A DNA stretch of 13,895 bases from an uncultured bacterium (lineage in GTDB: Bacteria > Hydrothermota > UBA3073 > NMUJ01): assembly GCA_965612795.1 (NCBI GenBank), contig CBFDTI010000032.1:1-13895 (forward strand), read 5' to 3'. The number at the start of each line of letters is the position of its first letter. The stretch's first letter is position 1. The translations under genes and the position numbers were made by a program. Shown piece after piece: positions 3,355-13,715 of the stretch. The notes under the pieces were generated by a model. The model saw nothing but the letters and a program-made list of their open reading frames with translations. It did not search any database and was not told where the DNA came from.

Positions 3355-4851
3355 ATGTTTAAGAAGGTAGCTCTTATTCTTGTTGTTATCCCTGTCATTG
3401 CAGTTGCTCAGGGTATCTTTCACGTTACGACGATAGACTCGTTTGTTGCTACACAGAGACATCTACCATTTTATGGTGTAGGCGATATGGATGCTGTGTA
3501 TTATAATGGTGAAATACATTTTGTGCTGACTTACCAACCTGATGATGGGACACCAGAATTAAGATATTATGTAAGGTCACCGTCGGGATATTATTTTGAG
3601 ACAATCGATACAATAACTGCACACCCGTATATCTATACGGCTATACATATGGATAGCGATGGCTTACCATGGATATTCATCACCTATGGTGGACAGCTCG
3701 TATGTTACCATCTTGATGGCGACAGCTGGCACCATTCTATTGTTGATACTACGGTTGAGGGATGGATGATCGCTACGGTTAAGAACGAACCCAACGAAAT
3801 AGGCGTATTTTACTGGAGACAATACCCCAACTGGGTAGAGAAGCTACATTATGCCTATTGGGATGGTGTATCGTGGAGCATAGAGACAGCTTTCGACGAT
3901 CTAACCGGAAGGGCTCACGATTATTCAGCCCCCAGTGCAGTGAAAGTGGAGAATGAGTTATATGTTGCGTTCACACATCTCGCTACTTATGATAGTGCAT
4001 ACGCGGATAGTACGGTTCTACATGTATGTCGTAGGTCGAACGGCACGTGGATGGACGATTTCTATTATTTCCTGTACTATACTCCGGATTACAATTACTG
4101 GAATGAGGCTGGGCCTGCGCTGTTGGGGTTATCATATACGGGTGAGCTACATCTATGGCAGACAGGGGCGGGTTGGGGCACAGCCGGTGGTGTTAACAGC
4201 TATCTGATAAAAACAGGTGAAGGTTGGACATTCCAACCCCCTGACACCATGCATTATGGGATATTCATCCGCAGCAGGGATAACCTGCAATTCTCCAGCA
4301 ACAACACCGCATTTTATGTATCAGAGGATAATGGGTTTGACCCATACATCGTATGGAGGAACTCAGACGGTACTTATGGAGTGAATACCGATATGCCATA
4401 TTACAGTGCTTATCCCTATGAAGTATGGTTATTCGAACCTGTGATAACCCCAGACGATACCCTACATATATTCTTCTGGAACGGATACGGTGATTCCAGT
4501 TATTTCATAACTTTCAAAGAAGCCACAGTTTATACAGGTGATTTACTTGGTATTGGTGAGCACCACACAACAGCTGCTAAGTTGAAGCTATGGAATTATC
4601 CCAACCCCTTCCAGCGGGTCACCACTATTCAATACTCTATCCCACACAGCGGGCATGTGAAGCTCACAATTTATGATCTACAGGGGAGGGTGGTCAAACC
4701 CCTTGTAGACACAAGGAGCCAACCCGGTACCTACGTGATAACCTGGTATGGTGATGATGTTTATGGTAAGCCAGTACCTGCGGGTGTATATTTTTGTAAA
4801 TTGGTGACATCCACAGGTGAGCTATTTCATAAGCTGATACTCTGTAGATGA
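3355..4851 (+). CDS. Secreted protein with signal peptide, aromatic-rich beta-propeller-like region and C-terminal T9SS type A / FlgD Ig-like sorting domain
   Basis: Signal MFKKVALILVVIPVIAVA-Q. Repeats like LHYAYWDGVSWSIETA and YHLDGDSWHHSIVD. Tail NYPNPF...TTIQYSIP..GHVKLTIYDLQGRVVK.LV......G.Y...W.G.D..G..VPAGVYF..L.......KLIL.R. Confidence 0.85.
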   Translation: MFKKVALILVVIPVIAVAQGIFHVTTIDSFVATQRHLPFYGVGDMDAVYYNGEIHFVLTYQPDDGTPELRYYVRSPSGYYFETIDTITAHPYIYTAIHMDSDGLPWIFITYGGQLVCYHLDGDSWHHSIVDTTVEGWMIATVKNEPNEIGVFYWRQYPNWVEKLHYAYWDGVSWSIETAFDDLTGRAHDYSAPSAVKVENELYVAFTHLATYDSAYADSTVLHVCRRSNGTWMDDFYYFLYYTPDYNYWNEAGPALLGLSYTGELHLWQTGAGWGTAGGVNSYLIKTGEGWTFQPPDTMHYGIFIRSRDNLQFSSNNTAFYVSEDNGFDPYIVWRNSDGTYGVNTDMPYYSAYPYEVWLFEPVITPDDTLHIFFWNGYGDSSYFITFKEATVYTGDLLGIGEHHTTAAKLKLWNYPNPFQRVTTIQYSIPHSGHVKLTIYDLQGRVVKPLVDTRSQPGTYVITWYGDDVYGKPVPAGVYFCKLVTSTGELFHKLILCR

Positions 4852-4863
4852 CGATGTTCGGGA

Positions 4864-5589
4864 TTACAGAATTCTCTCGATACAGTTAGATAGCTGGGTT
4901 GCAAACCTCGTTCCCAGCAACTTGTGTGGGTCGCCGAGCGCATCCTCTACGGATGGATCGAACTCTATCCTACCAAGGTATGGGAGGTTGAACCCCTCAA
5001 CTGCGGATTGTACGAAGGATGGTCCATCGAACGCCAAATTCTCTATCACCCCAATAATTGGTAGGTTAAGACTTTTAATAAACTGCACAACCTTTTGTGT
5101 TGTCACCCATGCCAACCGCGAGCTGGTTGTCACCACCAGATATTCAGCGTTCGGTATGAAACGTACCAGGTCGAGTGCGGGATCACTCAACCCCGGCGGC
5201 ATATCGATCACCAGCACATCGAGGTTACCCCATCTCGTGATCGCCAGCAACTCAATAATCGCATTCGATATATTCGTACCACGTAGTGGCGTAGGTTTAT
5301 CCTGTGAGAAAAACACCACCGACAGGTATTTCACACCACACACCTGTGGTGGTACGATACCTCTCTCCTCATGAGGTTCTGCTCCCTCCACACCCAACAC
5401 TATATGGGTTGTGGGGCCACAAAAGTCGAGATCACATAACCCACACGTGAACCCATCCCCCTTCAGTATAAGTGCGGTGGTGGTTGCAATCACGGTCTTA
5501 CCGATACCACCCTTACCACCAGTGACTGCGATTATGCGGTTAATATCGGCTAACCGCTCACCCAACACAGCAAGCCTGGGATCGGTCAT
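4864..5589 (-). CDS. hypB: Mrp/MinD-family P-loop ATPase, probable ATPase-type HypB (Thermococcales mmHypB-like)
   Basis: Deviant Walker A GGKGGIGKT, DLDF, PTPLRG..IS.AIIELL.ITRW..LD.LVIDMPPG and GVIEN. It lacks the post-ENM CxxC of ApbC/Nbp35, has an N-terminal DPRL, and overlaps the hypA stop (ATGA). Confidence 0.8.
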   Translation of the reverse strand: MTDPRLAVLGERLADINRIIAVTGGKGGIGKTVIATTTALILKGDGFTCGLCDLDFCGPTTHIVLGVEGAEPHEERGIVPPQVCGVKYLSVVFFSQDKPTPLRGTNISNAIIELLAITRWGNLDVLVIDMPPGLSDPALDLVRFIPNAEYLVVTTSSRLAWVTTQKVVQFIKSLNLPIIGVIENLAFDGPSFVQSAVEGFNLPYLGRIEFDPSVEDALGDPHKLLGTRFATQLSNCIERIL

Positions 5590-5999
5590 TTCAACCCCTC
5601 TATGGTCTGTATTGTCACACCACGACCGGTTTTGAGCTCAAAGTCTGGGCTACCGCAGTTGGGACACTTCACAAACGTATGTGCAAGTTCAGGCAAAAAA
5701 TGTATCGATTCACGTTCGGCCTCGTCCAGCTCATCCAACGCTGTATCGAACCCCCACTCATACCCACATCTACGACAACGTAGGATGGCCTTCTCAACGT
5801 TGAAATCCAGCTTCGCATCACCCAACAGCTGTGGGTTGGTTTTCTTCAGCTCCTCCATCGCATACTTGAATATATCACTATCTATCTGCTGTAGTTCACC
5901 CAACATTATCGTGATTTTGGTCACCTTCTTGAGCCCCTCATCTAAAGCGAGCTTCTCCACGGTACGGATGACGGATTCAGCTAACGCCCATTCATGCAT
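5586..5999 (-). CDS. hypA: Hydrogenase nickel incorporation protein HypA (long, Thermococcales-like form)
   Basis: N-terminal MHEWALA, LGELQ, and two Zn CxxC pairs (CRRC, CPNC) separated by an insertion containing IHFLPE. Ends GSPDFE...GRGV. AGGAGG RBS upstream. Confidence 0.95.
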   Translation of the reverse strand: MHEWALAESVIRTVEKLALDEGLKKVTKITIMLGELQQIDSDIFKYAMEELKKTNPQLLGDAKLDFNVEKAILRCRRCGYEWGFDTALDELDEAERESIHFLPELAHTFVKCPNCGSPDFELKTGRGVTIQTIEGLK

Positions 6000-6014: not shown

Positions 6015-7037
6015 TCAACATATCCTCGGTAGTTGCACACCCGTCAGCATATCGATGATACGGTGGCCACCTATCTCAGTACGTAAGATGACCTTACCTT
6101 TGGGTTCGTCCACCACCTCACCGATAATCTCGCTATCCTTACCGAGTGGATGTTCACGCATCACCTGTAACACGGGTTCGGCTGCTTCCTGTGCTACAAC
6201 GATGACAACTTTACCTTCGTTGGCAAGATACAGCGGATCGTACCCCAGTATCTCACAGATAGCCCTAACCTCATCCCTTACAGGTATACGGGTTTCGTGG
6301 ATTAAGATACCAAACCCCATACCTGATACAAGTTCATTAAGCGTAGTAGCTAACCCACCACGTGTGGGGTCACGCATAAACTTAACCTTATCCGTAACCT
6401 TGAGCACATCCTGTATCAACCCAGTCAACGCAGCGCAATCGGTTTGAATCCGAGCTTCAAATTCGAACTCCCCACGTGCAAGTAATATTGCAAGCTCATG
6501 CTCCCCTATCGTGCCGTTGATGATAACCTTATCACCCGGTCGTACGTACTGGGTGCCAAGCTGCAGCTGCTTAGGTTTCAAACCAATACCTGAGGTGTTG
6601 ATGAACAGCTTATCCGCGCTACGTTTTTCGACCACCTTCGTATCACCGGTGACAATCTTTATACCCTCACGTTTGGCAACCTCTGCCATCGATTCAACTA
6701 TCTTCGCAAGTGTATCATAATCGAGCCCCTCCTCGATGATGAACCCACACGATATATACAATGGTTGTGCACCCACCACAGCAAGATCGTTAACTGTACC
6801 ACAGACTGCAAGCTTACCTATGTCACCACCGGGGAAGAACAATGGGTTAACAACATACGAATCAGTCGTAAAACAGATATCGTAATCACCATCGGGTAGC
6901 TTCGATATCACCGCAGAATCGGTCAACTCATCCAGTATGTCGTTGCTGAAATGATGTTGAAACAACTCATGTATAAGGTCATGCATCAATCTACCACCGC
7001 TACCATGTGCCAACAGGATTTGTGATGGTTGAGCCAT
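6015..7037 (-). CDS. hypE: Carbamoyl dehydratase HypE
   Basis: ILLAHGSGG, FTTDSYVV.PLFFPGGDIGKLAVCGTVNDLA, TGDTKVV, MRDPTRGG, ANEGK and C-terminal LPRIC. Start reassigned from TTG7100 to ATG7037 because the homology begins there. Confidence 0.97.
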   Translation of the reverse strand: MAQPSQILLAHGSGGRLMHDLIHELFQHHFSNDILDELTDSAVISKLPDGDYDICFTTDSYVVNPLFFPGGDIGKLAVCGTVNDLAVVGAQPLYISCGFIIEEGLDYDTLAKIVESMAEVAKREGIKIVTGDTKVVEKRSADKLFINTSGIGLKPKQLQLGTQYVRPGDKVIINGTIGEHELAILLARGEFEFEARIQTDCAALTGLIQDVLKVTDKVKFMRDPTRGGLATTLNELVSGMGFGILIHETRIPVRDEVRAICEILGYDPLYLANEGKVVIVVAQEAAEPVLQVMREHPLGKDSEIIGEVVDEPKGKVILRTEIGGHRIIDMLTGVQLPRIC

Positions 7038-7097
7038 CACATAAATGTAAGTGATTTTTACAGGTATCAAGTAAACTATCGTTTTTGGAGGTATCAA
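7038..7097 (-). promoter_or_regulatory. Candidate internal hypE promoter with a tandem 16-bp direct repeat
   Basis: Minus strand: TTGATA (7070-7065), 15 nt, TACATT (7049-7044), 6 nt, ATG7037, with no SD. Direct repeat at 7055-7070 and 7082-7097 is 14/16 identical. Confidence 0.5.
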
Positions 7098-7217
7098 CAA
7101 AGATTGTGGTTAATTGGAAATGCTCGCTACTTTAATTTTACAACCCATCCACATACCACATGTGAACGTAACAGCCATCTTCTGATTCTGACATATGTTA
7201 GCCCCTATCCCACACTG

Positions 7218-8309
7218 TCAACCACCATACTTATAATAAGCGGCACAGGTACCTTCGGATGATACCATGCATGGCCCGATGGGGTTTGATGGCTTACACA
7301 CGGTTCTGAACAACTTACAATCGAGTGGTGTCTTCACCCCACGCAATATTGCTCCACATATGCAGCCAGGATGTTCTTTTGGTGGTGGTACCTCCACAGG
7401 CATGGAGGATTCGGCATCAAGCTCTGCAAATCTATCGCTGAGCTTCAACCCACTCTTTGGTATGACACCCAAGCCACGCCATTCAGTATCCGTGATATCG
7501 AACACCTCACGCATAAGCTGTAAAGCTTTCTGGTTACCCATGGGTTTGACTGCACGCTTGTACTGTATCTCTACTGTTGGTGCGTTATCTACAAGCTGTT
7601 TCACCAACATGTATATGGATTGCAGGATATCGAGTGGCTCAAACCCCGCAATCACACATGGTATACCGTATTTGTTGGCAATAAACTCATACGGTTGGCT
7701 ACCTATTATTGTGCTGACATGTCCGGGACATATGAACCCATTTATACGTAGGTCCGGATCCTGTATCAACACCTCCATAGCGGGTGGTATCAACTTATGT
7801 CCACAATATACAAAGAAATTCTTAACCCCCTGCTCATAAGCTAACTTGATCGTCACCCCCACGGTAGGTGCGGTGGTCTCAAACCCTATCCCAAGGAATA
7901 CCACCTTCTTGTCAGGCACCTGTTGTGCAAGCTTCAACGCATCCATGGCTGAATATACTACCACCACATTTGCACCCTGTGACCGCACTTTCTCCAAACT
8001 GTAGTACGAACCCGGTACCTTAACCATATCGCCAAACGTCGCAACTATAACATCCTGTAGCCTCGAATACGCTATCGCACGGTCAAGGTAGTGGTTAGGG
8101 GTAACGCAAACCGGGCAACCCGGCCCCGACAGCAACCTTATATTCTCTGGCAACACCTTACGTAACCCCGTACGTGCGATAGCCATCGTATGTGTACCAC
8201 ATACCTCCATGAGCACAATCTCGTCATCGTAACTGGTGGCCAACTCATGTATACGGGTGAGCAATCTCTGTGCTAACTCAGCATCACGATATTCCTGGAT
8301 GTATCTCAT
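7218..8309 (-). CDS. hypD: Hydrogenase maturation Fe-S scaffold HypD
   Basis: MEVCGTHT, GPGCPVC, GFETT, PGHVS and C-terminal CICG...DC.LF...C.P.NPIGPCMVSSEGTCAAYY. Confidence 0.98.
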   Translation of the reverse strand: MRYIQEYRDAELAQRLLTRIHELATSYDDEIVLMEVCGTHTMAIARTGLRKVLPENIRLLSGPGCPVCVTPNHYLDRAIAYSRLQDVIVATFGDMVKVPGSYYSLEKVRSQGANVVVVYSAMDALKLAQQVPDKKVVFLGIGFETTAPTVGVTIKLAYEQGVKNFFVYCGHKLIPPAMEVLIQDPDLRINGFICPGHVSTIIGSQPYEFIANKYGIPCVIAGFEPLDILQSIYMLVKQLVDNAPTVEIQYKRAVKPMGNQKALQLMREVFDITDTEWRGLGVIPKSGLKLSDRFAELDAESSMPVEVPPPKEHPGCICGAILRGVKTPLDCKLFRTVCKPSNPIGPCMVSSEGTCAAYYKYGG

Positions 8310-8524
8310 TGAAGTTTCGCTATCTGACGCAAAATCGATAGCGTCTCTTCAGCCTCCTTCTCGTCCAGCTTCTGTATAGCGAACCCCGCATGTACGATTA
8401 CGTAGTCACCAACTTTGACATCATCCACCAACTGTAAGCTTATGTGACGTTTGATACCTGATAGCTCGACGATTGCTTCATCGCCATGGATTTCGACCAC
8501 CCTCATCGGTATACCGAGACACAT
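8306..8524 (-). CDS. hypC: Hydrogenase assembly chaperone HypC
   Basis: MCLGIP, VGDYVIVHAGFAI..LDE.EAEETL. TAATG coupling to hypF and ATGA coupling to hypD. Confidence 0.98.
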   Translation of the reverse strand: MCLGIPMRVVEIHGDEAIVELSGIKRHISLQLVDDVKVGDYVIVHAGFAIQKLDEKEAEETLSILRQIAKLQ

Positions 8525-10899
8525 TATACCTCCTTTTTCTGAAAGTTAGCCACCATCACCTGACCCAACGCTATACCACCATCATTCGTAGGTACACGGC
8601 TATGTACGTAGACACGGAAGCCCGCATCGGTTAACAACTTGAACACCTGCCCCAACAGCAACATGTTCTGGAACACACCACCACTGAGTGCAACCTCGTT
8701 CACCCCATACCTGGTACGGATCTTTTCACATACATGAAGTATGATTTTAGCAACCGTACTGTGGAACTTACCTGCGATCACATCCACAGGCACCTTACGT
8801 TGTAGGTCGGTCACCACACCTGTGATGATAGGTGACGAATCTATCACCCACACATCGGTTCTATCGTCAACCCCATACTCATAGCTCATAACCCGTATAT
8901 TATCGGCCTCACTTGCTATCATCTCAAGCTCGATAGCTGCTTGCCCCTCGTAGTTGATCGTATCCCTCACCCCAATAAGTGAAGCAACCGCATCGAACAA
9001 CCGTCCCACACTCGAAGATAGTGGTGAATTAATCCCCTTATCGATCATGTTCTTGAGCACTTTATATTTGGAACGTTCCATCCGCTGCACGAAATCGATC
9101 TCAAGTGCCAGCATATCATCACCATATATCTGATACAGATAAGCCATAGCTATACGCCAGGGCTGTTTGATGGCTTGTTCACCACCCACCAGCGGTACGT
9201 ACCTGAAATGTGCCACCCGCTTGAACCCACCGTAGTCAGCGAGCAGGAACTCACCCCCCCACAGCGTACCATCTGTACCTAACCCGGTACCATCAAACGC
9301 CACACCGATAACCTTGTGGTTATCCAACATATTATCCGCCATACAGCTGGCGATATGTGCATGATGGTGTTGCACAGGTACCAACCGATACGCTTGTGGT
9401 GCCTTATTGTATAGCTCATACGCGTATTTGGTGGATAGATAATCCGGATGCAGATCATACGCTATGAGTTGTGGCTCGATATCGAACAGCTTCTTGAAAT
9501 GCTCAACCCCTGTCGTAAATGCGGTAAGTGTTTCGAGGTTCTCAAGGTCACCAATGTGATGGCTCATTATAACCTCAGCTTCATGTGCTAACGCAAACGT
9601 GTTCTTCAACTCTGCACCACATGCAAGTATCGTATGGGTGAACTCAACCGGTACACTTATCGGTGCAGGTACGTAGCCACGCGACCGCCGTATGATGAAC
9701 TCCTTACCAGTGGGTGCAAATATTCGGGTGACAGAATCGTCACACCTAACATGTATATCACGATCATGTATCAGAAAATACTCAGCAACCCCACGTAACC
9801 GTGTGATCGCATCATCATTCTCATATGCGATGGGCTCGTCAGAGATATTACCAGACGTCATCACCAGTACAGTCAACGGACTATTGTGGAACAACAGATG
9901 ATGCAACGGTGTGTAGGGTAACATAAACCCCAGGTATCGGTTGTTGGGTGCTACACTATCTGCGATCTTCGGTACTACAGGGTCGCTACGTCTACGTAGG
10001 AGTACGATTGGTGCTTTGGGTGATCTAAGTAGCTGCTCCTCCTCGGGTGATACCTCACAATACTTTCTTATCGTTGATAGATCTTTTGCCATCAACGCAA
10101 ACGGCTTATCCTCACGATACTTGCGGCCACGAAGCACCTTAACCGCAAGCTCGTTGGTGGCATCACAAGCTAAGTGGAACCCTCCCAACCCCTTAATTGC
10201 AACAATCTTACCCGCCTTCAGCAGCTGTATGGTTTGTTTGATGGCTTCAACCCCTCTGACACATAGGTTGGGGTTCGACGGCTGTATAAGTGTAACCTGT
10301 GGCCCACACACCGGGCATGCGTTCGGCTGTGCATGGAACCGCCGTGTTAATGGATCATCGTATTCGGATTGACAGGCGTGACACATCTTGAACTTAGCCA
10401 TCGTCGTATTGTGTCGATCATACGGTATATCCTTAACGATGGTGAAACGTGGCCCACAGTTGGTGCAGTTGATGAACGGATACAGATAACGGCGGTCGTT
10501 GGGGTCGAACAGCTCCCTGAGGCAATCACCACATGTGGCGATATCAGGTGACACCTGCGTCTTTACATGTGCTTGTGTGATACTGGGTAGGATTTTGAAC
10601 TCACGTTCATGCTTCAGAGGTAACGAAGTGATATCTATATTGGTGATCTCTGCCTGTGGTGGTGGTTCTGTCTTGAGCAGGGTTATGAACCTCTCTATCT
10701 TGGGGGGATCACCCTCCACCTCGATTATCACACCAGTTGATGTATTAGCTACCCAACCCACAAGCCCCAATCGTGTCGCGTACCGATATACGAGTGGACG
10801 AAATCCCACCCCCTGCACACGCCCGGTAACTGTTACCCTGATACGTTTAAGTGTGAACCCCTCGTCACACTTTCTATGTCGTACGGGGTTGAGCTCCAT
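8524..10899 (-). CDS. hypF: Carbamoyltransferase HypF
   Basis: Acylphosphatase GRVQGVGFRP, Zn fingers (CGDC..CTNCGPR; CHAC..RRFHAQPNACPVCGP), YrdC-like KGLGGFHLAC, Kae1-like QHHHAH, DGTGLG and PTNDGGIALGQ. Start probably ATG10899 rather than TTG10932. Confidence 0.97.
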   Translation of the reverse strand: MELNPVRHRKCDEGFTLKRIRVTVTGRVQGVGFRPLVYRYATRLGLVGWVANTSTGVIIEVEGDPPKIERFITLLKTEPPPQAEITNIDITSLPLKHEREFKILPSITQAHVKTQVSPDIATCGDCLRELFDPNDRRYLYPFINCTNCGPRFTIVKDIPYDRHNTTMAKFKMCHACQSEYDDPLTRRFHAQPNACPVCGPQVTLIQPSNPNLCVRGVEAIKQTIQLLKAGKIVAIKGLGGFHLACDATNELAVKVLRGRKYREDKPFALMAKDLSTIRKYCEVSPEEEQLLRSPKAPIVLLRRRSDPVVPKIADSVAPNNRYLGFMLPYTPLHHLLFHNSPLTVLVMTSGNISDEPIAYENDDAITRLRGVAEYFLIHDRDIHVRCDDSVTRIFAPTGKEFIIRRSRGYVPAPISVPVEFTHTILACGAELKNTFALAHEAEVIMSHHIGDLENLETLTAFTTGVEHFKKLFDIEPQLIAYDLHPDYLSTKYAYELYNKAPQAYRLVPVQHHHAHIASCMADNMLDNHKVIGVAFDGTGLGTDGTLWGGEFLLADYGGFKRVAHFRYVPLVGGEQAIKQPWRIAMAYLYQIYGDDMLALEIDFVQRMERSKYKVLKNMIDKGINSPLSSSVGRLFDAVASLIGVRDTINYEGQAAIELEMIASEADNIRVMSYEYGVDDRTDVWVIDSSPIITGVVTDLQRKVPVDVIAGKFHSTVAKIILHVCEKIRTRYGVNEVALSGGVFQNMLLLGQVFKLLTDAGFRVYVHSRVPTNDGGIALGQVMVANFQKKEV

Positions 10900-10932
10900 C
10901 GATATAAAATACGAGAATATCAAGATAGGCAA
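10900..10932 (-). promoter_or_regulatory. Candidate leaderless promoter of the hyp operon
   Basis: Minus strand: TTGCCT (10932-10927), 15 nt, TATTTT (10911-10906), 6 nt, ATG10899. No SD. Confidence 0.45.
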
Positions 10933-10973: not shown

Positions 10974-13715
10974 TTACCTCAAATAGACGAGCTTTTTACA
11001 GTGGTTACACCAGGTAATAAAATAGACACCAGTTGCCGGTAGTGTACCAACCTCTATCGACTTCGTACCTGCAGGTACCGTGACTTGCTTCACTAACCTA
11101 CCGATCATATCATAGATTTTAACCCTACAGCTGGGTAATGGAGCGGTAAATTCTAACCTCAGCTCACCCATTTGTGGGTTCGATAATATAAGGTTACGGG
11201 CTACCCTGTGGCTATGTCGGCTATCACCAGTGGCTTCATTAACCAATGCATACATTACTGGCATACCCGAACGCATGGATATAACTGCTATTTTTGTACT
11301 CCAGTAGTATAATGTGTTGGGATGCCCGTATGGATCCATACCCGCGGGGTAGTTGACACCCAACAAGAAGCTATCACGTGCTCGCATCCAATGTACTGGA
11401 TTACCTGAGTAATGATATGCGTAGGTGAGCCCATCAGCGATAACTGTCATCCAGTTGTATAGAAATATGTCGTTCGAAGAGCCATCCAACCGCCACCTAT
11501 ATGGGAAGCCGGGCATCTTCGGTAATGAAGCGTTACCATGCGGGTAACCGGAATCGATCCATGCGTGGTTGACAAGGAAGTCTGCATACTTGATGAGCGA
11601 ACTTATCGCATGTGTGTCGGGAGCACACATCTCATCACGTAGTTTACAGTAGCGGCCGAGTGAGTTCATGAGCAACCCCACCATCCATGGCATCACGTAA
11701 AGCTCATGCTCCCCAGTAGGGCCATTGATATAGCGTTGACGTGCTGCATGTGCATCATCGACCACCAGTTCAGCACTTTCTAAGTATCCTACATCCCCGG
11801 TCATTATATAAGCTTGGGTGAGCACCTCCAGCAACATAGCTGGCGGCCGTGGCTCCATCACACGTGCACTGTCACCCCAGATCCATGCATAGGCGTAACC
11901 ATCGTTGGTACCGCGACCCATGGTGTTATCAACCCGATACTTGGCATTGTTTGCATGCTCAACCGCTACATCATAGAACCTGCGGTTACCAGTTATAAAG
12001 TATCCATAAACGTAACCATCGATCGAATAATCATACGTCTGTGGCCAATGGTAACGATGTGGCCGCTGATAGTCGGTAGCACCATGATCAGGTTCGGGGA
12101 AACGTCCACCATTACGCCAGTTCATATCACCAGTTGTGTGGTAGATATCGATATCGGTACTGTGGAAAAGTGCAGGTTCGATCAGATCGTACCATTCTAT
12201 TTCATGTCTACGTAGCATCTGCAAGATAGCGGCATAGATGTGATCATACTGTAGGTTATAACATGCATCACCATAGGCTTCAAAGTCAACCGGTAGCTCA
12301 CCGAAATCCATCCACCCAAAAAGGTGCGCTGAATCCCTTGCAGCTAATAGACCCTCTGCATGATAGCCGGGCCCATGTAGTGCGGTTTCCACCATCTGTT
12401 CGTACTTGACAAAATTCGTATCCGTAGCCAGTGGATTACTTGCGGGTACGAGCTCAAACAGCGCATACGTCTGTGCGTACCATTCGGGTGATGCCAACCC
12501 CACCAGCGGCGTATTGAGTGCAAGTACGACAGGTTTGGGGTCACTCAACTCATTTGCGAAATAAAATAGCAGTTCGTGCGTCTTCTCCTCGCCACCTCGT
12601 AGCTCAAACTCGTGCGCAAATTCCGATGGAAACAGTGCAACCTCTATCCTACCAGTGGGGTCAACCCGTATCGCCTTGGGAAAGTTCTGCCAGAAGTACC
12701 GTACCCAGCAGGTGATGCTATGTTCACCATCTGTGAGCATAGCAAACCCATCCGCTTGGTAACCAGAATCGACCGGTACATCACCCTCGTAGATACGCCA
12801 ACCACGGAATGTTACATAATGCTGTGGCTTGAGGTTGGGATCATTATGGTTACCGTAGTCTTTTAACTTCCAGTAATCCCACTCAGGTGTACCGTCGGAA
12901 TCCTGATATAAAGTGACCGGTTGTGTCAGATAACCTGTCTGTACGTGACCTTTTGCATCACCAATCTCATAGCTAAGCATACTACCGAGACAGGGTTGTA
13001 GAACCACACTGAGGTCGGAAAATATTGCAGCATTTAGACCACCACCTAAGTTAAGATCGCCCGGCATAGGATTCTGTAAGGTATAGAATACCCTAAGCCA
13101 GGGTTGGTCACGATATGCTTCAACCCTTACTGTGAATCTACAGAATTGTGCACCAGATTCCGAACGATGGTCACCCGTAAGCTTTATAACACAGCGTATG
13201 GGGCCGTTTGATTCGATTTGAGCATAATCGATCTGTCCATAACGTGATAAATAAGCTACATTATCGGCTGTGATCACAATCCCACCATCAGCTGGACGTA
13301 CCAGTGTATCGCCATCTAAGACAATAAGATCGAATAGGTTGAAACTATCCTTACGAATATGTACAAGCAACCTACCAGTGTTGATCTCGAAGAAATCACC
13401 ACTATCAGCAGCAAGGTCAGGCCATGAAGTGCCACCACCTGCATCGGTAAGCGTAAATTCTGCAGTATCACCCGCCGCTACACTTGCAAGAAACGTGACC
13501 AGCGCCCATTTGATGCTACCATCATGCCAATAGGCGAGCGGTTCAGCTTGGGTTGGACACCCCTCAACCGTAAGTACATCAGATGACCAGACTGTGCTCC
13601 TTGGGAACGGTATCCCTATCACCACAGGTTCGTATGCACGAGCTACACCGGTACGCTCGAACACGGAGATAGAAACCGTCACACAATGCAGTATCAAGCT
13701 CAACAGAGGGGTCAT
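10974..13715 (-). CDS. Secreted PcRGLX/YetA-like (exo-rhamnogalacturonan lyase-like fold) protein with a short T9SS-type C-terminal domain
   Basis: EPV..GIPFP, Q.EPLAYW.DGSIKW, INTG.L, E.NGPIR..IKL.G, VRYFWQNFPKAI, GEEKTHE, ASPEWYA, FGWMDFGE, N.QYD and H..DIDI.H match the family pattern as I recall it. Tail VKIYDMIGRLV...ATGVYFI......KKLVYLR. Confidence 0.7.
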   Translation of the reverse strand: MTPLLSLILHCVTVSISVFERTGVARAYEPVVIGIPFPRSTVWSSDVLTVEGCPTQAEPLAYWHDGSIKWALVTFLASVAAGDTAEFTLTDAGGGTSWPDLAADSGDFFEINTGRLLVHIRKDSFNLFDLIVLDGDTLVRPADGGIVITADNVAYLSRYGQIDYAQIESNGPIRCVIKLTGDHRSESGAQFCRFTVRVEAYRDQPWLRVFYTLQNPMPGDLNLGGGLNAAIFSDLSVVLQPCLGSMLSYEIGDAKGHVQTGYLTQPVTLYQDSDGTPEWDYWKLKDYGNHNDPNLKPQHYVTFRGWRIYEGDVPVDSGYQADGFAMLTDGEHSITCWVRYFWQNFPKAIRVDPTGRIEVALFPSEFAHEFELRGGEEKTHELLFYFANELSDPKPVVLALNTPLVGLASPEWYAQTYALFELVPASNPLATDTNFVKYEQMVETALHGPGYHAEGLLAARDSAHLFGWMDFGELPVDFEAYGDACYNLQYDHIYAAILQMLRRHEIEWYDLIEPALFHSTDIDIYHTTGDMNWRNGGRFPEPDHGATDYQRPHRYHWPQTYDYSIDGYVYGYFITGNRRFYDVAVEHANNAKYRVDNTMGRGTNDGYAYAWIWGDSARVMEPRPPAMLLEVLTQAYIMTGDVGYLESAELVVDDAHAARQRYINGPTGEHELYVMPWMVGLLMNSLGRYCKLRDEMCAPDTHAISSLIKYADFLVNHAWIDSGYPHGNASLPKMPGFPYRWRLDGSSNDIFLYNWMTVIADGLTYAYHYSGNPVHWMRARDSFLLGVNYPAGMDPYGHPNTLYYWSTKIAVISMRSGMPVMYALVNEATGDSRHSHRVARNLILSNPQMGELRLEFTAPLPSCRVKIYDMIGRLVKQVTVPAGTKSIEVGTLPATGVYFITWCNHCKKLVYLR

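Follow-up and report, generated by a model that had tools for sequence, protein, structure and literature searches.

A long-insert HypA and an ATPase-type HypB at the end of a bacterial hyp cluster, and their alternation with GTPase HypB in WOR-3 genomes

An uncultured bacterium of the phylum named WOR-3 in our genome sample closes its hyp cluster with two overlapping genes, one for a long-insert HypA and one for an ATPase of the Mrp/MinD family. From their likeness to the pair of Thermococcus kodakarensis, we put the probability at about 90% that these proteins provide the nickel-insertion step for two [NiFe]-hydrogenases, instead of a GTPase HypB. An ATP-dependent route had been proposed in a preliminary description of this DNA; orthology to the T. 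kodakarensis pair, the lack of GTPase HypB and the either/or distribution of the two HypB types support it, the activity itself being presumed. Related bacteria, and archaea too, commonly carry the pair; the copy described here is an ordinary member of a known system that is routinely mislabelled.

The hyp cluster and its host

The window, meaning the whole stretch of DNA analysed, comprises 13,895 nt and is the entire contig C32 of a 1.42-Mb genome that is 99.48% complete and 0.08% contaminated. In the cluster, hypF, hypC, hypD and hypE lie upstream of hypA, and hypA and the ATPase gene come last.

5586..5999, minus strand: hypA of the long-insert (PRK03824) type, a nickel chaperone of 137 aa (NF003008, 174.4 bits; cut-off 125)
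4864..5589, minus strand: ATPase-type HypB of the Mrp/MinD family, 241 aa (PDB matches, tree, 14 of 16 family-specific columns)
5586..5589, minus strand: ATGA, stop-start overlap of hypA and the ATPase gene (junction sequence)
6015..7100, minus strand: hypE, longest open reading frame, with an ATG near 7037 as the probable true start (TIGR02124, 462.7 bits; cut-off 251.6)
7218..8309, minus strand: hypD (TIGR00075, 489 bits; cut-off 192.8)
8306..8524, minus strand: hypC (TIGR00074, 96.6 bits; cut-off 48)
8524..10932, minus strand: hypF, longest open reading frame, whose true start may lie a few codons inside (TIGR00143, 830 bits; cut-off 466)

HypF, HypC, HypD and HypE each scored above their own NCBIfam cut-off; hypA and the ATPase gene, both on the minus strand, fill exactly the coordinates first given. 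The cluster had also been described as complete apart from a G3E GTPase HypB, and the genome-wide search bears this out: TIGR00073 had no match in the whole genome, where the sole cobW-family match above cut-off is Era. The G3E HypB signature (TIGR00073, cobW-HypB-UreG domain) likewise had no match in the ATPase protein. The stop and start codons of hypA and the ATPase gene overlap in ATGA, and the translational coupling of the two genes stated in the preliminary description is likely on this basis. No Rfam family was detected in the window, and promoter and terminator scans gave a signal no higher than in shuffled sequence.

An archaeal contig, which by the preliminary description would have spoken against the proposal, and a mis-binned one can both be rejected: the genome has a bacterial rpoB above cut-off and a tmRNA, genes with T9SS/FlgD tails lie on both sides of the cluster, and the order hypE-hypA-ATPase is common to eight loci of same-class genomes. 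Proteins from three genomes of the phylum, among ten queried, bear the name WOR-3 or Ca. Stahlbacteria in their source records. The tetranucleotide correlation of C32 (0.917, against a median of 0.953) is the seventh lowest among 47 contigs and no outlier. The flanking proteins, both secreted and ending in T9SS/FlgD-like C-terminal tails, are encoded at 3355-4851 and 10974-13715, and the one of 913 aa carries PcRGLX-like lyase domains. At positions 1-631, a nucleotidyltransferase-like reading frame is truncated by the contig start and followed by a HEPN gene, presumably an MNT-HEPN toxin-antitoxin arrangement; the protein encoded at positions 1390-2226 combines an EVE domain with a tail that resembles restriction endonucleases.

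The HypA-ATPase pair, Mrp proteins and GTPase HypB

The following motifs were located in the two proteins.

5991..5999, minus strand: MHE, nickel-binding motif at the N-terminus of HypA (sequence; invariant in a 49-row alignment)
5655..5777, minus strand: HypA zinc finger with long insert, CRRC-x33-CPNC (sequence)
5688..5705, minus strand: IHFLPE, in the HypA insert (alignment to 3a43)
5494..5517, minus strand: GKGGIGKT, deviant Walker A of the ATPase with its signature lysine (sequence, conservation)
5575..5583, minus strand: DPR, N-terminal motif of the ATPase, present in 98% of 65 family rows and less than 10% of 91 Mrp rows and part of the predicted HypA interface
5023..5043, minus strand: ENLAFDG, the site where ApbC/Nbp35 usually have an Fe-S-binding CxxC (sequence; EN..CPHC in the canonical Mrp of the same genome)

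HypA belongs to the PRK03824 type by its NF003008 score, its MHE and a spacer between the CxxC pairs within 31-33 aa; it falls below the TIGR00100 cut-off (66 bits vs 88). The long insert with IHFLPE between the zinc-binding pairs, noted from the outset, amounts to a spacer of 33 residues from CRRC to CPNC, and its histidine was rightly singled out, His100 aligning with His98 of T. kodakarensis HypA (alignment to 3a43). H100, F101 and P103 are invariant across 49 homologues. The best PDB match of HypA was T. kodakarensis HypA (3a43/5aun, E 1.5e-36), followed by H. pylori-type chains (E 2e-5).

The ATPase carries GKGGIGKT, DLDF, DMPPG and ENLAFDG, and its P-loop motifs, switch and Walker B included, are intact and conserved. 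Its best PDB matches were 3vx3, which we take to be T. kodakarensis HypB, and 5aun-5auq (E 6.5e-65), against only E 3.7e-27 for the ApbC chain 8zkc. No NCBIfam model names the protein, a member of PF10609: the best were MrpORP with 135 bits (cut-off 450) and ApbC with 111 (cut-off 348). It is a divergent member of its family, with the nearest protein beyond its own 90% cluster only 64% identical. According to the accessible text of a review, 3A43 and 5AUN are T. kodakarensis HypA and the HypA-HypB complex. The archaeal system has the orthologous ATPase and HypA (3vx3 and 3a43, with complexes 5aun-5auq), the same MHE and insert histidine, a deviant Walker A, adjacent genes and no GTPase HypB in the genome. 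Here, by contrast, the host is a WOR-3 bacterium and the pair forms the tail of a hypFCDE cluster.

The ATPase shares its fold and P-loop motifs with Mrp/ApbC/Nbp35 carriers (PF10609; 8zkc, 3kb1, 6g2g) but differs from them in its N-terminal DPR, its lack of CxxC, the tie of its family to long-insert HypA and its place in a separate clade. The tree was built from 81 rows, left after 24 of 105 had been taken out as near-duplicates or outgroup members. In it, 71 ATPase-type rows including Thermococcales stood apart from 10 Mrp rows with support of 100/100, and quick trees agreed. A position within ordinary ApbC/Mrp clades, named beforehand as the outcome that would speak against the proposal, was therefore not found; the protein is closest to the T. 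kodakarensis HypB structure and sits in the Thermococcales-containing clade. Profile scores separate the groups in the same way (229.6-423 bits for the family, at most 175 for canonical Mrp), and 16 columns are family-specific in a comparison of 65 family and 91 Mrp rows, of which the window ATPase retains 14. HypA adjoined canonical Mrp in none of 93 loci; one contig search gave 80 loci, of which just 2 belonged to the family, and the other 78 were canonical Mrp and served as controls.

The missing Fe-S-binding CxxC had been offered as a hallmark of the protein. The absence itself was confirmed (ENLAFDG) and extends to all 78 family rows, duplicates counted, but its diagnostic value did not hold up. 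By the same pattern 61 of 93 canonical Mrp loci were positive and 32 negative, which makes the absence of CxxC a poor family marker, and it was dropped as such.

We predicted the complex of HypA and the ATPase with ESMFold2, supplying both alignments at 1:1 and no nucleotide. The pair scored 0.69 and the best of three controls 0.01; among pairs of known status, 116 of 157 solved ones cleared the mark for a complex, as did 2 of 215 mismatched ones. Complex runs shared at least 97% of contacts, with partner pLDDT of at least 89. In the model, the N-terminal helix of HypA and its residues 101-109, right after His100, contact ATPase residues 1-11, 74-78, 94-102 and 106-119, and the predicted interface on the ATPase includes the DPR, EERG and SNAIIELL motifs. 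Five of the 16 family-specific columns fall within the 31-residue predicted interface, a weak enrichment (p=0.04). A complex with HypA, on which the original proposal depended, is predicted; because 5AUN is a solved complex of this kind, the score may come from the model's memory of it and is to be read as likeness, not binding.

The two HypB types were counted in 201 WOR-3 genomes at least 85% complete, the host included, with a 31-row family profile (E<=1e-60) for the ATPase type and TIGR00073 for the GTPase. The ATPase type was called in 29 genomes, GTPase HypB in 127 and both in none, where about 18 overlaps would be expected under independence; since the sampled genomes are related, these counts overstate independence, and no p-value is attached. 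HypA was above its cut-off in 155 genomes; HypD was found in 145, and the latter divide into 27 with the ATPase type and 118 with the GTPase, with no genome having neither or both. HypD thus accompanies the ATPase type in 27 of 29 genomes. The ATPase type is spread over eight WOR-3 families, among which f15 is mixed (11 ATPase and 4 GTPase in 15). No confirmation of the locus comes from G001, a genome of the same genus (87% complete): both hydrogenases are there, but HypA, HypD and either type of HypB are missing.

In a sample centred on a Bathyarchaeia genome (n=151), whose phylum we assume to be Thermoproteota, 42 genomes had the ATPase type, 41 the GTPase and one both. This genome (G301; L202, with the GTPase at C1:648024-648641) is the sole one with both types among 352 in the two paired samples; one type may be in the course of displacing the other, or the genome may have two nickel pathways. 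The phylum sample including Methanophagales had the ATPase type in 4 of 81 genomes, and the Methanobacterium-centred one in 0 of 81. At the protein level, 1105 ATPase-like sequences matched at E<=1e-40 and 887 HypAs at E<=1e-15. Those with a named source among the best 120 include KSB1, Pelotomaculum, Desulfotomaculaceae, Dehalococcoidia, Bathyarchaeia, Asgard and Methanophagales. As had been foreseen, automated annotation treats them as generic: databases call them P-loop NTPase, Mrp/NBP35 or partitioning ATPase and nothing more specific.

HypA is encoded directly upstream of the ATPase in 24 of 29 WOR-3 loci, one of them truncated at a contig end. Among the five exceptions, two loci begin at a contig edge and three (L138, L142 and L143, all in family f33, the WOR-3 lineage nearest Thermococcales) have the ATPase away from hypA, with a long HypA elsewhere. 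In archaea, where loci were drawn for 30 of the 42 Thermoproteota matches, HypA lies beside the ATPase in 33 of 34 loci. In families f15 and f4 (L127-L135, L125, L126), a gap of 130-350 bases of repeat-like non-coding DNA replaces the overlap; several f15 gaps contain one shared element, and no conserved gene was found in the gaps of those relatives that have them. Two f4 genomes (L014:2680-3110, L015:360-780) carry between hypE and hypA a gene of about 135 aa with FHGHEGP...C, presumably FmdE-like and a candidate extra metal chaperone.

The type of HypA follows the type of HypB. The spacer is 31-33 residues long with HF-x-P in all 29 ATPase-side HypAs examined (18 PE, 11 PD), and 12 residues in all 30 HypAs from GTPase genomes, which were the top Pfam scorers of those genomes, a choice biased toward short spacers. 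Long-insert HypA is a simple marker for ATPase-type HypB. In E. coli and H. pylori a short HypA (TIGR00100) partners the G3E GTPase HypB (TIGR00073). This GTPase presumably serves the same step, in which nickel reaches the hydrogenase large subunit through HypA, and its gene has the same position in hyp clusters, but it is of a different NTPase family, its partner HypA has the 12-residue zinc spacer, and it co-occurs with the ATPase type in none of the 201 WOR-3 genomes. A review, in the portion available, states that GTPase HypB binds nickel itself and passes it to HypA.

These comparisons bear on a different reading, in which the ATPase is an Mrp/ApbC-type Fe-S carrier for hydrogenase subunits or HypD, nickel being delivered by HypA alone or by another factor. 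PF10609 membership, MrpORP and ApbC as best models and the Mrp proteins without CxxC are all compatible with a carrier, and HypD and hydrogenase small subunits do require Fe-S clusters. We nevertheless regard this reading as very unlikely. The scores lie far under the cut-offs of those models, no family row has the CxxC, and the family is a separate clade that includes Thermococcales HypB, accompanies HypA of the long-insert type and excludes the GTPase type of HypB. In addition, a canonical Mrp with EN..CPHC is encoded by a separate gene on contig C6 (39% identical to the ATPase over 180 residues), so that the genome already has a protein for carrying Fe-S clusters.

Phylogeny and exchange

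Six Thermococcales proteins represent T. kodakarensis in the tree, its own sequence being absent; they were taken from the protein search, as the Methanobacterium-centred sample yielded none. The window ATPase falls in a clade of 25 rows (98/92) made up of 14 WOR-3, 2 KSB1, 1 Pelotomaculum, 3 Asgard, 4 Methanophagales-side and 1 other. WOR-3 rows are found elsewhere as well, those of f33 beside Thermococcales and Aciduliprofundum (100/96) and those of f34 within Thermoproteota (99/98). The WOR-3 rows require eight changes on the tree, seven of them forced by starred branches, and a single clade of all 21 was rejected by the AU test (p=3e-7), a grouping chosen after inspection of the tree. In view of this polyphyly, repeated exchange of the pair between lineages is likely; the backbone of the tree gives neither donors nor direction. 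Family f33 is the best candidate for a direct transfer between Thermococcales and bacteria.

In another reading the biochemistry is the same, but the window copy came from Thermococcales in a rare horizontal transfer not long ago. Among solved structures it is closest to T. kodakarensis proteins, GTPase HypB is found in G003, the nearest genome of the same order, the tetranucleotide correlation of C32 is lowish, and f33 does group with Thermococcales. Such an origin is nonetheless improbable for this copy: it is 52-53% identical to proteins of KSB1, Bathyarchaeota, Methanophagales and Pelotomaculum and 40-46% to those of Thermococcales, which form a different subclade; a clade of window ATPase and Thermococcales was rejected by the AU test (p=0.022); and the hypE-hypA-ATPase order recurs in the eight same-class loci. 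The label 'Thermococcales-type' used in the preliminary description consequently stands for the kind of system and fails for the donor, given the AU test and the bacteria-rich clade. Its suggestion of movement between domains survives as repeated exchange, not as a rare import, the pair being common in bacteria.

A broader scenario can be put forward tentatively, at slightly under even odds. Instead of being peculiar to archaea, the pair may be a cross-domain two-gene cassette that has repeatedly displaced the GTPase system, WOR-3 having gained it several times from different sources (f33 next to Thermococcales, f34 within Thermoproteota, others in the bacteria-rich clade); Asgard and Methanophagales may have taken theirs back from bacteria, and HypA spacer length alone would predict the nucleotide system.

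Client enzymes, proposed mechanism and implications

Two [NiFe] large subunits, each keeping both CxxC pairs and the C-terminal extension, are encoded on contig C9. They belong to a 20-kb energy cluster (G000:C9:7227-27251) in which genes of a group-4-like membrane hydrogenase with antiporter-like subunits precede those of Hdr-like and Mvh-like proteins. The group-4-like large subunit lies in the membrane cluster and the Mvh-like one adjoins the Hdr-like genes; these group names, and two putative maturation proteases, come from motif reading, below or without model cut-offs. The genome also encodes a LarA-family nickel-pincer racemase homologue on G000:C7 (L214:1328-2623), for which LarAH6 is the best model but stays under its cut-off. 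A prismane-family match on G000:C73 (L213:231-1541) is a hybrid cluster protein, not Ni-CODH.

That the pair mainly serves some other nickel enzyme, such as the LarA-like protein, is the most remote of the readings considered, as hypA and the ATPase gene are the last two genes of a hypFCDE cluster, HypD accompanies nearly every ATPase-type HypB, LarA relies on its own pincer-cofactor pathway and the prismane-family match is no Ni-CODH. In its favour, besides the LarA-family gene, is a passage of a preprint (bioRxiv 10.64898/2026.02.25.708027) according to which HypAB without hydrogenase has been tied to other enzymes in Acetobacterium.

A separate observation concerns WOR-3 families f14 and f23, which have HypA and GTPase HypB. 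HypD (E<=1) and HypF were each found in 0 of 5 tested; in f14, HypE was above cut-off in 0 of 6 and [NiFe] large subunits were present in 5 of 6. [FeFe] hydrogenase was absent from both families (0 of 5 and 0 of 3). In all five tested, a HypC domain is fused to a HydE-like radical SAM enzyme beside an intact HydG.

L235:12-2585 (G029:C34), L236, L237, L238 and L239:1046-3690: loci of the HypC-HydE-like fusion
L216:3863-5296 and L217:3895-5073: f14/f23 large subunits

The fusion and HydG point to a radical-SAM route that may supply the Fe(CN)(CO) unit of [NiFe] hydrogenases. A literature search found no relevant account of the fusion. The host genome has neither the fusion nor a HydG gene.

For the hyp cluster described here, we return to nickel insertion by HypA and ATPase-type HypB. 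Reviews, in the parts accessible, describe T. kodakarensis HypB as having no nickel site and, when bound to ATP, forming a 2:2 complex with HypA. His98 then moves to the MHE and creates a nanomolar nickel site; HypA, which raises ATPase activity threefold, leaves the complex and brings the nickel to the large subunit. Every sequence feature needed for this mechanism is present in the window pair. By analogy, an ATP-bound HypB dimer would bind two HypA, whose insert would shift so that His100 joins the N-terminal MHE in a high-affinity nickel site. This site would be loaded directly from the cytosol, HypB itself binding no nickel. ATP hydrolysis would then free Ni-HypA, which would hand its nickel to large subunits already carrying the Fe(CN)2CO from HypCDEF; the group-4-like and Mvh-like large subunits on C9 are the likely clients. 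The pair would be an exchangeable two-gene module, probably gained several times by WOR-3 lineages.

Passages of reviews still call the ATP-hydrolysing HypB archaeal and discuss T. kodakarensis as the only case. We found no description of a bacterial ATPase-type HypB in the literature searched, which covered few subscription journals; the parts seen of a Pelotomaculum preprint, a CODH paper and an Mbh paper contain nothing on it beyond a citation. The present analysis adds a strict either/or relation between the two HypB types, a link of each type to the length of the HypA spacer, and evidence for several exchanges. The finding widens a solved system and brings no new mechanism. Genomes like that of the host are read as 'hypB missing', the gene being labelled a generic Mrp or partitioning ATPase, and recognition of the family closes this gap in hydrogenase maturation in about one-fifth of HypD-bearing WOR-3 genomes (27 of 145). 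The bacterial copies also provide material with which the generality of the nickel-affinity-switch mechanism can be tested.
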